A stretch of DNA of 62,458 bases, filler included, from Globobulimina sp. (Eukaryota), in assembly GCA_003354225.1 (NCBI GenBank). It is 33 parts of 33 records of this genome, joined end to end, with 100 filler letters (N's around TTAATTAATTAA, not from the genome) between each part and the next. Parts side by side here need not be neighbours in the genome. Positions count along the whole stretch, not along the records: positions 13,278 to 15,073 come from PIVH01011840.1; 32 more parts are not named here. One strand, given 5' to 3'. This document shows positions 5,592 through 20,663 of this stretch, piece after piece. The first letter of the stretch is position 1; each line of letters begins with the position of its first letter. The position numbers and the translations under genes are program-made. The notes below the pieces were generated by a model. It did not search any database. It saw only the letters and a list, made by a program, of their open reading frames with translations, and had not been told where the DNA came from.

Positions 5592-5691
5592 NNNNNNNNN
5601 NNNNNNNNNNNNNNNNNNNNNNNNNNNNNNNNNNNTTAATTAATTAANNNNNNNNNNNNNNNNNNNNNNNNNNNNNNNNNNNNNNNNNNNN

Positions 5692-6368
5692 AAAGCACTA
5701 TTTTCTAATTTCGACCGTAAATGGGCAAATTTTTCGACATTTGACAAAGTTGGATGCTTATGAACAGCAGCTTCATAACTGTCCCAAAATTCTCGCCATT
5801 TTAGAATTTCACCCCCAAATTTTTCGAGTTCGAGTTTTGGTAATTTAATCGAAGTTACTGGTCTAGGATTACCTCTAATATGTGGTCCTGGTGGATCGAC
5901 ATTAGCCTGTGGTACTGGTAATGCTGCTATATTGGGTTGTTGAGCTATTTGTCGTCGTAAATCGTCATTATCTCGGGCAAGACGATTTTGAGTCTCTAAT
6001 TCCTTAATTTTGTCATTTTTATGTTCCATAAGTTGCTCTTTTAGGATTGAGAAACGCGCAATTAGATCATTGCTTTTAGCCCACGAAGGAGCTTCTTCAT
6101 CTTGAAATGCCTCAAACTCATTAATTTTGGCTACTTCTCCTTCGATAGCATTAGTGTACTCTGTAGTAGCAAGCTCAAGTTTACTAAATTTGGTTGTAAG
6201 CAAATTAAGTTTGGTACCCACACTTATTAAATGCTCTTGTGTGGTCTGTAGATCATAGTGATGTATGTCTCGTTGTAATCCGAGAAGACCGTCTACATTA
6301 TGATGATTTATCTCCTCTTTCAATACTTTTAAATAACGTGTTACTACACCTTTCTTCTGTGACGACAT
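5692..6368 (-). mobile_element. BEL/Pao LTR retrotransposon gag N-terminus (DUF1759-like), 3' partial
   Basis: Coiled-coil N-terminus then IKLPKLELEKFGGEILKWREFWDSYEAAVH..LSNVEKFAHLRSKL, the typical BEL/Pao gag motif. Confidence 0.9.
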
Positions 6369-6611: not shown

Positions 6612-6906
6612 CACTTCGGTTGACACCATATGTTGAAGTACTACTTTCCTTTCTATATAACAAAAGGAACGGCCCATAGAATATCAGAAGGAATTACTTA
6701 TAAATATCGGAAAATAGTACTCAACGAAACTTGGGGCACTTTTGCCATCTTTTTGTGTCTAATTTATGATTATTAAGTACAAAAAATATATTTACTTGGA
6801 GTCCTTTATGGATATTTATGCAACATAATAAACAAATAAATAACTTTTCTAATCTTCTTATTTTTCTTCTTATTCTTATTTCTTTTTTCTACATTTCTTC
6901 TTAACA
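6612..6906 (-). repeat. Putative 5' LTR (6631-6906) and primer-binding site (6612-6628) of the BEL/Pao element
   Basis: The minus strand begins TGTTAAG and ends CTTCAACA (TG..CA inverted termini), followed after 2 nt by TGGTGTCAACCGAAGTG (TGG-start PBS, loosely tRNA-Leu-like), 260 nt upstream of the gag ATG. No second LTR is available to confirm. Confidence 0.55.
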
Positions 6907-11381: not shown

Positions 11382-13059
11382 GTACTTACAGTATAAGCAA
11401 GATGGTGTTGTTTTATTCGGTTATGATTATGAAAAAGCCTTTGACCGTGTTGATCAATCCTGGATGTTAAAAGTACTAGAAAGAATGAATTTTGGTCCTA
11501 TCTTTCTAAGATGGATCACAGCTATATATAATGGCATATCTGCCAAAGTTGAAATTAACGGTTTATTCACTAAGTCATTTGATGTAACACGTGGTATTAG
11601 GCAAGGATGTCCTGTGTCCATGCTACTGTTTGTTTTACAAGCTGAACCATTTTTAGAGGCAGTACGTCAAAATTCTAAAATTCAAGGATATTCTTTGCCA
11701 TTCTATTCTGGAATGGGCCAGCTAAAGTGTTTGTCATATGCTGATGACAACTTGTTTATATTGAAAAACCCCTATGATCGGGTTGAGTTAGAAAGGGAAA
11801 TTCTACAATACTCCAGAGCATCTGGAGCAAAAATAAATGATACTAAAACAGAGGCAATCATCCTTGGTCGTCTGTCTGATGACAAAAGTGCTACAATTCC
11901 TCGTCAATATTTGAAAAGCGAAATTAAGTTTCTTGGTGTCTGGGTTGGCAAAAACCAGCACAGACTTAATTGGCAATCTGCCATTGAATCTATTGCAAAA
12001 CGACTTCATAATGGAAATAAATTTTCAATGACTTGGTTTGACAGAATAAAATTTGTAAACATTTATGTTTTGTCGAAGGTATACCATATTATTCCATTTG
12101 AACCACCAGATAAGGCTGATATAAAAGCCATTGAAACAAAAATTCTAAAATTTGTTTGGGACTACCCAATCTGGCGTCCTATAAGAACAGACACACTTAG
12201 TAAAAAATGGCAAGATGGGGGTCTTCGCCTGCCCAGGTTAAAATATAGATGCCTTACTTTTTTTGCTAAGCTAATTGATCTGTTATATAAAGGTTGTGAC
12301 GAAAAGTTTAGACGTGTGTGGTGGGCACAAATGGTCTTTTGGCTTGGTTTAAATATTCCAAATATACGACAAATCTGTCCAAAAATTACTGAAAACAGGT
12401 ATCTTCATGCGCCTTTGTCCATAGCAGTAAAATCTGTATATGTTAAATTTGTTAATGAGTCCATAAAAGCCATATCTGGCTTAGTTCCACCTATTGATTG
12501 GTCAAAATTCGAGACCAGAAGTATTTACTGGAAATTGTTGTATAATGGTTCCAGTAGTGTCACCTGTGTGGCAACAGAGCCCTTCACTGACTGGGGTAAA
12601 GTTTGGCCTGAAATACTGTCTAGAGAGCTTCCCAGTAAGGAAAGACTCTTGAGTTATAAAATAATACATCATGCTTTGCCTTTTAAGTCCTTTCTATCTG
12701 ATCTAGATAAAAGATGTGTTGCCTGTGGTCTAGATGGGGCTGACAACCCTAGACATTTTTTCTCAGAATGCTGTAAATATCATCAGTTACGTGAAAGATT
12801 AAATATTGCTATTAGAGGTCTCAGTCTAAGCTTAAACTTGAACTGGGATACTGTAAGATTCAATGGTGCACTGGGACCAAATCTGGCCCAAAGAGAACGT
12901 AGAATTCTCCGCACAATCTGTGCTGTATATAAATCGGTACTTTGGGCTGAACGCCAAAATGCTCGGGCTATGGCCAACTATATTCTGTATAATCCTGATA
13001 TAGATGTCTTGGATGACAAAATAGCAACGAAATGTCAAGAAACATTATCTATCACTTAA
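11382..13059 (+). mobile_element. Non-LTR retrotransposon ORF2 (L1/Tx1-like reverse transcriptase plus C-terminal CCHC), 5' partial
   Basis: DYEKAFDRV, GIRQGCPVSMLLF, YADD, KFLGVW, DGGLRLP and CVACG..HFFSEC; AATAAA right after the stop. Confidence 0.95.
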
Positions 13060-13280
13060 AATAAAAAACGTGCGATCGCACGAATGTGTGTGATTGTGAT
13101 CAGGACGTCCGTTCTGGATGTCATTTGTTATGTATATTATTATATGTATTTATCTGTTAATTCTGTTATGATAATTTNNNNNNNNNNNNNNNNNNNNNNN
13201 NNNNNNNNNNNNNNNNNNNNNTTAATTAATTAANNNNNNNNNNNNNNNNNNNNNNNNNNNNNNNNNNNNNNNNNNNNCAG

Positions 13281-13366
13281 GTTGTCTACTGACGAGGTCC
13301 CCCGGACCAGTGCTCTCTATGGGGTCTAGACAACTACTGGACCGAAACCCGATTCCGATAGGAGTA
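13281..13366 (+). ncRNA. Hammerhead ribozyme with non-circularly permuted strand order; predicted cleavage after C13326
   Basis: Core CUGACGA 13289-95, GAAA 13344-47, GUC 13324-26. Stem I 13281-88/13327-34 (8 bp), stem II 13296-300/13339-43 (5 bp), stem III 13347-50/13322-25, extended by 13311-20/13358-66. Confidence 0.75.
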
Positions 13367-13505
13367 GAATTGCCTTATGTATCTATACTGGGACAGATTT
13401 CCTTTACTGTTTATAATACAGCCTTTTTATTTGTTTTTCATTTAATATAATTTTATTACACACAACACTGCGAGATGGGGCAATGAAAGTGTGCAAGATT
13501 ACTCA

Positions 13506-13935
13506 TTACTGTAGGAGATTTAAAGACCGAAGCTTTTCATGCATAGCATTGGTATTAAACAGTTCCAGCTACTCCATGTTATATTAATGTTATATTCATG
13601 GTAATAGTAATGGTAACGATAATGGTAATGGTATTACTTCTGTTACTGATGCTGCTAATATGAATGTGAGTGGATTTGCAGCAGGAATTTTTACTGCATT
13701 TGGCTATGGTAATGGTGATGCTAATGGTATTAGTTTTGGTTAAGGTAATGGTAACAGTAATGGTAACAGTAATGCTAATGGTACTACTACTGTTACTTAT
13801 GATTTAAAGACCGAAGCTTTTCATGCATAGCTTCGGTTGGGTGGGTGATTACTGTAGCAGATTCCAATAGACTAAAAGCCTTTTATGCGTAGTTTGGGTT
13901 GGATGATTACTGTAGGAGATTTCAAGGCCGAAGCC
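13506..13935. repeat. Degenerate ~55-60 bp repeat (ATTACTGTAGGAGATTTAAAGACCGAAGCTTTTCATGCATAGC-like, about 4 copies) interrupted by (GGTAAT)n-like microsatellite
   Basis: Near-identical segments at ~13506, ~13801, ~13848 and ~13905; a second duplicated block at ~13949-14035 versus ~14670-14762. Confidence 0.75.
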
Positions 13936-15173
13936 GTCCAGTCACTCTATACAAAACCAGTTTTTTGTTTTCCACCAAAAATAATTGCTGCATATAGTTT
14001 ATGCAATACCCCCAGTAGTCAAAATCCAAAAATAGTGCATTCTCAGCTAAACCATCAACAGCACATATGTATGTACTAGGAAAAAGAGTTCAAAGAGTAC
14101 AGAGTCATAATATAGTTGTCTGCTTACATGTTAAGAAAGATTTTAATCAAAAATCGCAAATCGATACCCATTTCATTTTGTAACTTTTGTGGTATGAAAA
14201 TGGCAAAATCGGGTATTGTTTTTATCTCATCGGGTATGGGTGGGTAAAAATGCTGGATTTCAGCTATCCTGAATTCATTACACCCGAAGCGCAGTAGTAA
14301 ATGGTCGGTTTATTTGAGTGTAATTTCTAAAGCTTTTCAGAAAATAGTACCTATGTATTTACATTGCAGCCTTTGTTTGTTGTATCCGGCTAGATCAACG
14401 AAAATTAAGAATATACTCCCATGCATATTGTACACCAAAACTGATACAGCTTCTTACCTAATCTTTATTCTTTGTTGAGGAGAGTCGAGATTGTCAGGAT
14501 TTCACTTCGTCAGTGTCTTGACTTGGTCGTTAGTTGATGTGGATAGTTTCTCGGCCGGCTGGCTGTATATTTGGAGAGCACACAACGGAAAACAGGCAGA
14601 GTAGCTAAAATTTCGAATGAAATAAACTGACTGTCCACGGGGTTTTATGTTGGCAATCTGGGTCACCACCATACAAAACCAGTTTTTAATTTTCCATATA
14701 AATATAATGCTGCATAGGTACCTATAGTTTATACAATAGCCCCAGTCAAAATCCAAAAATAAAGCACACTATTCGACCATCAATAGTACACACACGCTTT
14801 AAATTATATTATATTATTATTATTTATTAAAAATTCTTCCAGAAAAGTTACAGGAAGAGGTTTGAATTTGCCGCCAATTTCCTGGATCGATCCGGAGGAA
14901 AATGTTTGAATTTCCCACCAGGCCCAATCCCAAATCTACGTTTCTATGTTATCGCCCAAAATGGAATGTGCGTTCCAAGAGATTCGCGAATATTCGAATC
15001 TCCCACCTGGCCCAAATCTGAGATCTATGTTTCCACATTACTGTCCAATATGGGAAGCGCCTCTCAAGCGACTNNNNNNNNNNNNNNNNNNNNNNNNNNN
15101 NNNNNNNNNNNNNNNNNTTAATTAATTAANNNNNNNNNNNNNNNNNNNNNNNNNNNNNNNNNNNNNNNNNNNN

Positions 15174-19025: not shown

Positions 19026-20663
19026 TTACGAATTGCTACATCTCTTCTCAACATCCCGTGTTTTAAATATTATTTTATCAATTTGTATGGCGCCTTGTTT
19101 GCCAATGCCACCATCATTCACTCCAACCTTCTTCAACAAGACTTGTGCGGAGGCACTCATTTGCTCACAGAACCCCAACAAACCATTTTCATTTTTGCTT
19201 GCTTTCTCTTCCTTTGCTTCACATTCAAATTTCTCATAAAACCTTTGCTTCGCCGCATCAATCCGACTCAAAAAATACGTCCCTTCGTAAAAATTCTCCT
19301 TACAAACCGGAAAAAGCGGAACAAACTCTTCTTTGCATTCATAATTCGCATGCATTACCTTCTCTTTTTCATTCATAATATCTGTAAATTTCACACACGA
19401 CATTTTCCTGCGCTGCGCAAACCTTTCTTCAATGTCATTGTTGCCAATAATTCTCCTCAATAAACGCGCTGAATTTGCAGAATTAACAACTTTCAACGAA
19501 TACAATGATGCCACCGTACCAGAACCATATGAAAACATTGTAATATCTTTACCCAACAAGCCATCCACATCCATTCTACACTCATAAATCAATGAGATTA
19601 ACCCCAAAAATATGCTCGCGGTGTAACAGTTGCCTACACTCTTTGGAATAACTGTAGATTTCGCCACAGATTCCTCATAATATTGTTTCGCAATCTTCTC
19701 AAATCTTTTTATCACCAATCTACAGTCCACAGTATCTGCACAAGCCACTTTCTCGTATTTTGTTAAAAACGCCAACATCTCTGCATTGTTTTTATATTTT
19801 TCAAAATAAAAGGCAGCATTCCTTAAGAAATCGTGATAGATGACCCTCCCAATTGTCTTTGTCACCAATTTGTTATACGGCGCATGACAAAGCCAATAAT
19901 TTGCAGTGTTACACGGTGTCCAGTCAGCGCCCATTTGCTGTGCATAGCGGTTATAACACGCATCGAATGCAGTTAAATAACACTTGTTTGAAACATGACC
20001 ATTCACCACAGGATAGGCAGAATTTAAATGTGGTTTATAAAAATCATATTCATCCGCTTTGTAACTGCTGCGCAATAAATTTAAATCAATACAGGCATTG
20101 TGACCGAGTAAGATTGCCACTGCGCCACAACCACCAGTACAGCGAGCGGGGCCTGGCGCATATTCCGCGATGTCCGCACTGATCACAATGCAATATTTAC
20201 CGTCCCAATATTTTGAATTGATGCGATCGAAGGCGGTGAACAAAGCAAATGTGCCGCCATAGCACGCATGCTTGACATCGATGCCTTCGATGGAAGAGTT
20301 GCCTTTGTCGGCAAATAGTTGTTGTAAGCTGGAAGAGATTGATTTGCTGTGATCGATAATGGTCTCCGTGGCGACGCAGATCCAACCAATGTCTGAATAG
20401 CAAATGTTGTTTTTGCGTAATAAGTTTGATAATACGGTCAAACAAATGGAGACAATGTCTTCTCGGTCGGAGGTGAATGCCATGTCGGTTTGGCCCAATC
20501 CAATCGTGTATTTGCCCTCCGATATGTTGTTGAATTGTTCATATTCGGACTGCGCAATGTATAGTTTAGGGAAATAACATTCCATTGCTACGATACCAAC
20601 GTTAACGGTTTCTTCTTCATTGCTTTCGGACGATGCTTTCGATGAAGGGTCTTTTTCTTCCAT
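19026..20663 (-). CDS. HMGCS: Hydroxymethylglutaryl-CoA synthase (eukaryotic type), complete and intronless
   Basis: GKYTIGLGQ, ATETIIDHSKS (catalytic Glu), GIDVKHACYGGT (Cys), CHAPYNKLV (His), GNCYTAS, FSYGSG. Confidence 0.97.
   Translation of the reverse strand: MEEKDPSSKASSESNEEETVNVGIVAMECYFPKLYIAQSEYEQFNNISEGKYTIGLGQTDMAFTSDREDIVSICLTVLSNLLRKNNICYSDIGWICVATETIIDHSKSISSSLQQLFADKGNSSIEGIDVKHACYGGTFALFTAFDRINSKYWDGKYCIVISADIAEYAPGPARCTGGCGAVAILLGHNACIDLNLLRSSYKADEYDFYKPHLNSAYPVVNGHVSNKCYLTAFDACYNRYAQQMGADWTPCNTANYWLCHAPYNKLVTKTIGRVIYHDFLRNAAFYFEKYKNNAEMLAFLTKYEKVACADTVDCRLVIKRFEKIAKQYYEESVAKSTVIPKSVGNCYTASIFLGLISLIYECRMDVDGLLGKDITMFSYGSGTVASLYSLKVVNSANSARLLRRIIGNNDIEERFAQRRKMSCVKFTDIMNEKEKVMHANYECKEEFVPLFPVCKENFYEGTYFLSRIDAAKQRFYEKFECEAKEEKASKNENGLLGFCEQMSASAQVLLKKVGVNDGGIGKQGAIQIDKIIFKTRDVEKRCSNS

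Follow-up and report, generated by a model that had tools for sequence, protein, structure and literature searches.

A candidate type-CSG hammerhead ribozyme at the 5′ edge of a multicopy non-coding repeat

Does a 71-nt stretch at the very start of a short contig, in which all parts of a hammerhead ribozyme stand in a non-circularly permuted order, encode a ribozyme that cuts, or does it hold the remains or the mere semblance of one? The motif reads CUGACGA, GAAA and a GUC cleavage triplet, with its three blocks following each other as C block, S block and G block. Judged from its pairings, it may be a genuine, probably slow, hammerhead of type-CSG, a reading to which we give about even chances, and its place in an apparently animal assembly seems to be the 5′ edge of a repeat that is multicopy and non-coding. 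The original prediction had taken the order for none of types I–III; it was correct in calling it a non-circular permutation, since the descriptor scan classes the site as CSG, but this order has already been published as type-CSG with two cleaving sequences (PMC10085705). Thus, the motif is a candidate new member and not a new class.

The window, that is the whole analysed stretch of 62,458 nt (positions 1–62458), consists of 33 contigs of 1795–1797 nt each, ordered by size and joined by spacers of the form N44-TTAATTAATTAA-N44; contigs that stand side by side in it are not genomic neighbours, and their GC content ranges from 0.28 to 0.49. The motif occupies the extreme start of contig 13278–15073 (1796 nt), at which 13278 is the first base past the N spacer, and so begins 3 nt from the contig end as had been claimed. 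No ORF of 170 aa or more was found in this contig, none of the 8 scanned ORFs (15 ORFs of at least 50 aa were listed) had a Pfam match, and a search for a tRNA-derived SINE head with ARAGORN found no tRNA in it. The contig is unlike every other contig of the window, and when up to 3 mismatches were allowed, neither half of the motif was found a second time in the window. Rfam returned zero families at the gathering score in the full window, nothing at E up to 1 across the motif contig, and, within 13278–13700, none of the hammerhead families even at E up to 10, which bears out the expectation that standard covariance models miss the motif.

The core and pairing coordinates of the original prediction all proved correct. 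On the + strand, the first contig bases, CAG (13278–13280), precede block C (13281–13300), which is made of the 5′ strand of stem I (Ia, GUUGUCUA, 13281–13288; GTTGTCTA in the DNA), the catalytic core C3–A9 (CUGACGA, CTGACGA in the DNA, 13289–13295, unique in the window) and the 5′ strand of stem II (IIa, GGUCC, GGTCC in the DNA, 13296–13300, with 13296 as G10.1). A CCC triloop and a second GGACC follow (13301–13308), and then the linker from block C to block S (13309–13318). The 3′ strand of stem III (IIIb, 13319–13325) ends with U16.1 (13325), and block S, taken as 13322–13334, comprises IIIb, UC and the 3′ strand of stem I; in the original prediction, IIIb, U16.1 and C17 were placed at 13322–26. 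C17 is 13326, and by analogy with the hammerhead core, cleavage is predicted between C13326 and U13327. The 3′ strand of stem I (Ib, UAGACAAC, 13327–13334; TAGACAAC in the DNA) pairs with Ia, and the linker UACU (TACT in the DNA, 13335–13338) joins the distal ends of stems I and II. Block G (13339–13350) holds the 3′ strand of stem II (IIb, GGACC, 13339–13343, with 13343 as C11.1), the core bases G12, A13, A14 and A15.1 (GAAA, 13344–13347) and IIIa, which is CCC at 13348–50 and, read further as CCCGAU, extends to 13353. Internal-loop bases and the 3′ strand of a distal helix (13354–13366) complete the region.

Stem I has 8 Watson-Crick pairs (13281–88 with 13327–34) and one G-U, since G13280 may pair with U13335 as a ninth pair, which was included by the descriptor scan when G-U was allowed; the linker between Ib and IIb is accordingly 4 nt, or 3 nt if this pair forms. 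Stem II has 5 Watson-Crick pairs (13296–300 with 13339–43), the first being G13296–C13343, that is G10.1–C11.1. Stem III has 4 pairs, namely one A-U and three G-C, with U13325 (U16.1) facing A13347 (A15.1); beyond them, G13321 faces G13351 as a mismatch in the window copy. As counted here, all three stems run without interruption and abut the core. Hammerheads prefer the G10.1–C11.1 pair and the GUC triplet, both present here.

From these pairings we infer a fold in which, in the + strand RNA, Ia would pair with Ib, IIa with the distal GGACC and IIIb with IIIa. All three helices would cross one another as pseudoknots and so rebuild the normal hammerhead core, while the 3–4-nt linker would tie the distal ends of stems I and II. 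Self-cleavage 3′ of C13326 would then release a 5′ fragment of 49 nt, if the RNA begins where the contig does. Once transcribed, the first GGACC is expected to pair with IIa at once as a decoy hairpin, and another hairpin would sequester the cleavage site along with IIb. Slow or partial cleavage is expected, as the decoy hairpin and the site-sequestering hairpin would compete with the active pairings.

The closest published counterparts are described by Eckert, Friedrich, Weinberg and Weinberg (Nucleic Acids Res 2023; PMC10085705), whose paper defines the three blocks and names their six orders. Its type-CSG consists of CSG-1 and CSG-2, a similar pair, both from metagenomes; both cleaved in vitro at the predicted site, giving fragments of 48/49 and 29 nt, with kobs of 0.004 and 0.026 per min, which is slow cleavage. 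The covariation of type-CSG was called "modest", and its authors rated the evidence for its biological relevance as weaker than that for type-SGC (PMC10085705). Like CSG-1 and CSG-2, our motif has the C-S-G order, the full core, three crossing stems and a predicted cleavage after the UH of block S, and is derived from DNA; its predicted 49-nt fragment, from the contig start to C13326, stands beside their 48/49 and 29 nt. In this comparison by description, the differences are that CSG-1 and CSG-2 are metagenomic whereas our motif is a multicopy repeat among animal-type contigs, and that our motif has a decoy IIb strand and no visible helix bridging stems I and II. According to the paper, such an extra helix is required in SGC-3 and apparent in type-CSG (PMC10085705); here, no partner for it was visible, only 3 nt (5 in the variant copies) being present upstream of Ia, which is where its 5′ strand would be expected.

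Type-SGC, with the HRIMA-1 motif and its variants, is a circular permutation of CSG that shares with our motif the S-to-G junction, the short linker between Ib and IIb and the pseudoknotted core, whereas the ends of the molecule lie at different blocks. Its 583 predicted examples come from metatranscriptomes of probable circular RNAs, and its Ib-IIb junction is "typically three nucleotides" (PMC10085705), a length with which the short linker, regarded in the original prediction as a possible replacement for a loop-loop contact, agrees. In HRIMA-1, stem I is a conserved 5-bp helix, and SGC examples have a fourth helix that is needed for cleavage (PMC10085705); stem I here has 8–9 bp. Taken together, the order, the core, the stems and the short Ib-IIb linker fit a candidate member of type-CSG.

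Resemblances to the canonical type III hammerhead (SCG) were also seen. They include the core, the GUC site, the long stem III with its interruptions, a 5-bp stem II able to form a closed hairpin and the location in repetitive non-coding DNA, but canonical type III has its substrate block upstream of block C, and here this block lies between IIa and the strand that bears GAAA. Retrozymes carry two hammerheads in direct or tandem repeats, and Penelope-like elements have an RT/GIY-YIG ORF with hammerhead-bearing terminal repeats. Unlike retrozyme hammerheads, our motif has no paired copies, LTR-like repeats or tandem units, and the traits of either element type were absent from the 1796-nt contig; an element reaching beyond this short contig may still possess them. 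Of the proposal that the motif belongs to a multicopy retrozyme or Penelope-like element, the multicopy part stood, with two colinear copies described below, while the assignment to either element found no counterpart in the contig, where the motif occurs once and outside every repeat, and where RT is absent.

To judge how easily such an arrangement arises by chance, we scanned the whole window on both strands with a descriptor for all six block orders. The motif was the sole hammerhead-like match in any block order, even at Watson-Crick thresholds of 3/3/2. With G-U allowed and thresholds of 4/4/3, 69 of 1000 dinucleotide shuffles had at least one match, and 5 of the 83 matches obtained in total reached a summed stem length of 17 or more, 17 being the observed value. 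With Watson-Crick pairs only and thresholds of 3/3/2, 802 matches were obtained from 10,917 mononucleotide shuffles, among which the largest sum was 15, seen once; the observed sum of 16 was reached in none of the 10,917. The per-window chance probability is thus below about 1e-4, and extrapolation of the decay places it at about 1e-5 to 1e-4. The motif exceeds chance for one window (p below about 1e-4), yet a few equally good chance motifs are still expected over hundreds of thousands of windows, and many false positives are reported from pattern searches by Eckert et al. (PMC10085705).

Other copies of the element were found in sequencing data. One public run, here X1, was listed as containing the contig, with a share of 0.68 of its sampled words, and no RNA run was listed; in X2 and X3, two runs from the sample of X1, only a minisatellite part of the contig was covered. 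The exact window version of 13278–13546 was absent among the X1 Logan contigs (0 pieces at 99% or more), in which two variants were identified instead. The first, V1 (265 nt, depth 28.9), covers 13278–13546 with 7 differences over 269 nt and a 6-base gap downstream of the motif; the second, V2 (102 nt, depth 16.7), covers 13278–13377 with 10 differences over 100 nt. Both are colinear with the window over 13278–13377, with the same C-S-G order, no gap and no reported joints. The element is therefore multicopy, with at least 3 versions, and its minimum extent is 13278–13546 on the + strand, as covered by V1 (gap-free over the motif) and, for the first 100 nt, by V2. As the two variants come from an independent assembly, the C-S-G order is real sequence and not an assembly artefact. 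The contigs of V1 and V2 end 2 nt upstream of 13278, and three variant sequences in all have their ends no more than 2 nt from this position; this shared stop near 13278 suggests the edge of an element or of a transcript, although a branch in the assembly graph would look alike. That the 265-nt variant contig could be a circular unitig was ruled out, since in the window copy the sequences at its two ends do not resemble one another.

Six of the positions that differ bear on the motif. In both V1 and V2, 13317 C>G removes one pair of a 9-bp extension of stem III, 13321 G>C turns the G-G mismatch into a C-G pair, 13337 C>A falls in the linker, and 13356 C>A, seen in three variant contigs in all, falls in a loop; in V2, 13322 G>A loses a stem III pair and 13331 C>U changes a G-C of stem I to G-U. 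V1 consequently has seven continuous stem III pairs (13319–25 with 13347–53), a helix which is within its minimum-energy fold, and a stem III mismatch is present in 2 of the 3 copies. None of the listed differences of V1 and V2 falls in the UC or GAAA core positions, the GAAA of V1 included. Within about 30 nt of the ends of a variant contig, differences go unlisted (at most 1 for V1 and 4 for V2), and these end zones take in the whole C block, so that CUGACGA lies outside the comparison. The search for further copies and covariation that the original prediction had proposed yielded two diverged copies, but no double compensatory change in the stems, as judged from the difference tables of these two variants; likewise, V1 showed no conservation of the motif above that of its flank. 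The variants are compatible with the hammerhead model, but they do not prove selection.

Several features that were absent from the original description, namely the second GGACC (13304–08), a 7-bp alternative hairpin, the break of the extension at 13317 and the competing folds, affect how the RNA may fold. IIa and 13301–08 form GGUCC-CCC-GGACC, a complete local stem-loop II (−7.3 kcal/mol) that rivals the active stem II, and this local decoy hairpin on IIa is part of the minimum-energy fold in all three copies. The 7-bp hairpin pairs GGUCUAG (13323–29) with CUGGACC (13337–43) at −9.8 kcal/mol, and hides the cleavage site and IIb. Both hairpins are contained in the nested minimum-energy fold, which is an inactive form (−29.1 kcal/mol, z −0.78; an equal or better fold was obtained for 43 of 200 shuffles), while the active helices, each taken alone, have −8.05, −5.45 and −4.2 kcal/mol. 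The pseudoknotted active fold is not scorable by ViennaRNA, which ignores tertiary contacts; thus, these energies show strong competition rather than impossibility of the active fold. A canonical hammerhead with the local hairpin as its stem II was ruled out, since AGUG instead of GAAA follows the hairpin.

The extension of stem III, 13311–20 with 13358–66 (9 bp), is fully paired in the window copy as had been described, but it is not conserved, being broken at 13317 in both variant copies. Stems II and III of the hammerhead stack end to end, so the linker from block C to block S would have to span the whole stack. By our own length estimate, this linker of 18–20 nt should be ample for a stem III of 4–7 bp; with the distal helix formed (13311–15 with 13362–66), 10 nt would be left for about 24 stacked layers, which is barely possible when fully stretched. 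As this span seems too tight, we read the distal extension as an alternative fold or an ancestral state, outside the active fold.

We also searched for relatives with the words of the motif itself. A pattern for the S-G junction gave 0 matches in viral contigs and 0 in metagenome contigs. A 20-mer covering the C core and the decoy gave none in viral contigs, one in metagenome contigs (L001, 3997–4016) and one in the prokaryote genome collection (L002, a Solirubrobacterales MAG, 6812–6831). Each agrees with the C core and decoy hairpin over all 20 bases, but both were dismissed as chance matches, as they lie in GC-rich bacterial sequence, without GAAA after the match and without an S block. No relatives were thus found in the viral, metagenome and prokaryote genome collections scanned, and the motif is therefore probably a separate lineage. 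A full-text literature search with the sequence words of the motif returned only unrelated papers, and for type-CSG, the literature searched contained nothing relevant that was later than Eckert et al. 2023 (PMC10085705).

The motif may have other origins. As the main rival reading, it could be a dead relic, that is a scrambled canonical hammerhead, probably of type III with a long open stem III, which no longer cleaves; its blocks would still match because they all derive from one ribozyme, and a piece of about 30 nt with the substrate strand would now lie between two GGACC copies. We consider this possible, if somewhat doubtful. It is consistent with the direct repeat of GGACC (13304–08 and 13339–43) that brackets the S-block segment, the chance of a second exact GGACC in the 38-nt gap being estimated at about 0.01–0.04 from base composition, and with GGUCC-CCC-GGACC being an intact canonical stem-loop II. 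The interrupted pairing 13311–20/13358–66 resembles an open type III stem and is useless in the CSG fold, the inactive nested fold is favoured, and the stem III mismatch in 2 of 3 copies and the lack of excess motif conservation in V1 point the same way. The duplicated GGACC, the intact stem-loop II and the long open-ended stem III are together the traces expected of one rearrangement of a type III hammerhead. On the other hand, the 20-mer scans of viral, metagenome and genome contigs found no canonical relative with the same C block, and no contig of X1–X3 skips the inserted segment, no joints being seen. Moreover, the 3–4-nt linker between Ib and IIb has the length seen in active permuted hammerheads, and the C-S-G order cleaves in 2 of 2 published cases (PMC10085705), both of which speak for a motif that may still cut.

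A patch of the repeat that is richer in GC might instead meet the loose three-block descriptor by accident. As set out above, 5 matches from 1000 shuffles equalled the observed length when G-U was allowed, the rate of about 1e-5 to 1e-4 per window implies several such motifs over hundreds of thousands of windows, and Eckert et al. report many false positives from pattern searches (PMC10085705). Still, a chance resemblance seems improbable to us, as the observed sum was never reached in the Watson-Crick-only shuffles, V1 has 4 more pairable stem III positions, the G10.1–C11.1 pair and GUC are the forms of the consensus, the blocks are packed within 71 nt, and a second exact IIb strand beside IIa is hard to obtain randomly. 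Another possibility is action between molecules or neighbouring copies, in which each S block would serve as substrate for the C and G blocks of the copy that follows, in a pseudoknot-free, discontinuous type III arrangement like that of tandem ribozyme repeats; by our own topological reasoning, S(1)-C(2)-G(2) is a canonical order for two copies in a row. This we likewise regard as improbable, given that no tandem copy is present within the 1.8-kb contig and that the stop of the three variant sequences within 2 nt of 13278 is a better fit to the edge of an element or transcript than to an array. Finally, a misjoining of canonical hammerhead pieces at a contig end might be suspected from the motif touching that end and from the exact window version of 13278–13546 not being among the X1 Logan contigs. 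It is hardly credible, since the C-S-G order and a gap-free motif recur in two distinct contigs of the independent X1 assembly, and the sole internal repeat in the motif is 5 nt, far below the word size of an assembler.

We propose, tentatively and with more reserve than for the hammerhead itself, that an animal genome may carry a repeat family with a working type-CSG hammerhead at its 5′ end, which would have arisen independently of the metagenome pair, and in which the decoy strand would be a folding switch that decides on cutting. Eckert et al. state that they found no permuted hammerhead in a known organism except for one doubtful type-GCS in a bacterium (PMC10085705); the motif, if it works in this way, would give eukaryotes, and indeed identified organisms of any kind, their first ribozyme with a non-circular permutation. 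It would connect such ribozymes with the repeats of eukaryotes and offer many natural copies for covariation statistics, and an independent multicopy animal lineage would mean that the type-CSG permutation arises repeatedly. The duplicated IIb strand hints at how one rearrangement of a canonical ribozyme might produce a non-circular permutation, a point on which PMC10085705 does not decide. If the motif does not cleave, it would serve as a warning that pattern matches with perfect stems can be scrambled relics.

Regarding the source of the sequences, the other contigs of the window have long unbroken ORFs, with a Pfam match in 6 of 12 ORFs in one scan and in 9 of 16 in another, and the families are eukaryotic and mostly of animal type. 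They include PDS5, RCC1, caspase, the sodium:neurotransmitter symporter family (SNF) transporter and Kelch, as well as SAM plus RING, reverse transcriptase and DUF1759. Judged from these families, the sequences of the window appear to be animal in origin. A reverse transcriptase ORF (RVT_1, 11464–13059, + strand, 531 aa, E 2.3e-14) and a DUF1759 ORF (5640–6368, − strand, 242 aa, E 2.3e-9) are on other contigs and unlinked to the motif. An HMG-CoA synthase ORF (19026–20663, − strand, 545 aa) is apparently full-length with short flanks in a 1796-nt contig, and its best solved relative is 2p8u ("Hydroxymethylglutaryl-CoA synthase, cytoplasmic"; E 5.7e-103). As the ORFs are unbroken, including this one, the assembly may be derived from transcripts.

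Several internal repeats were identified in the motif contig, none of which includes the motif. A direct repeat of about 95 nt (13949–14039 and 14671–14766, 80–91% identical, about 725 nt apart) may represent either a small repeat present twice or the two ends of one element. A 12-nt-period minisatellite (13589–13813; GGTAAT/GGTAAC-like units, 7 copies in register) is the sole part of the contig also covered in X2 and X3, with a high summed depth. A repeat of about 30–45 nt (ATTACTGTAGGAGATTTAAAGACCGAAGC...) has 4 copies (13505–13553, 13789–13837, 13848–13876 and 13906–13934); V1 ends inside the first of them, and one copy ends in a near-palindrome, formed by 13810–23 with 13824–37.
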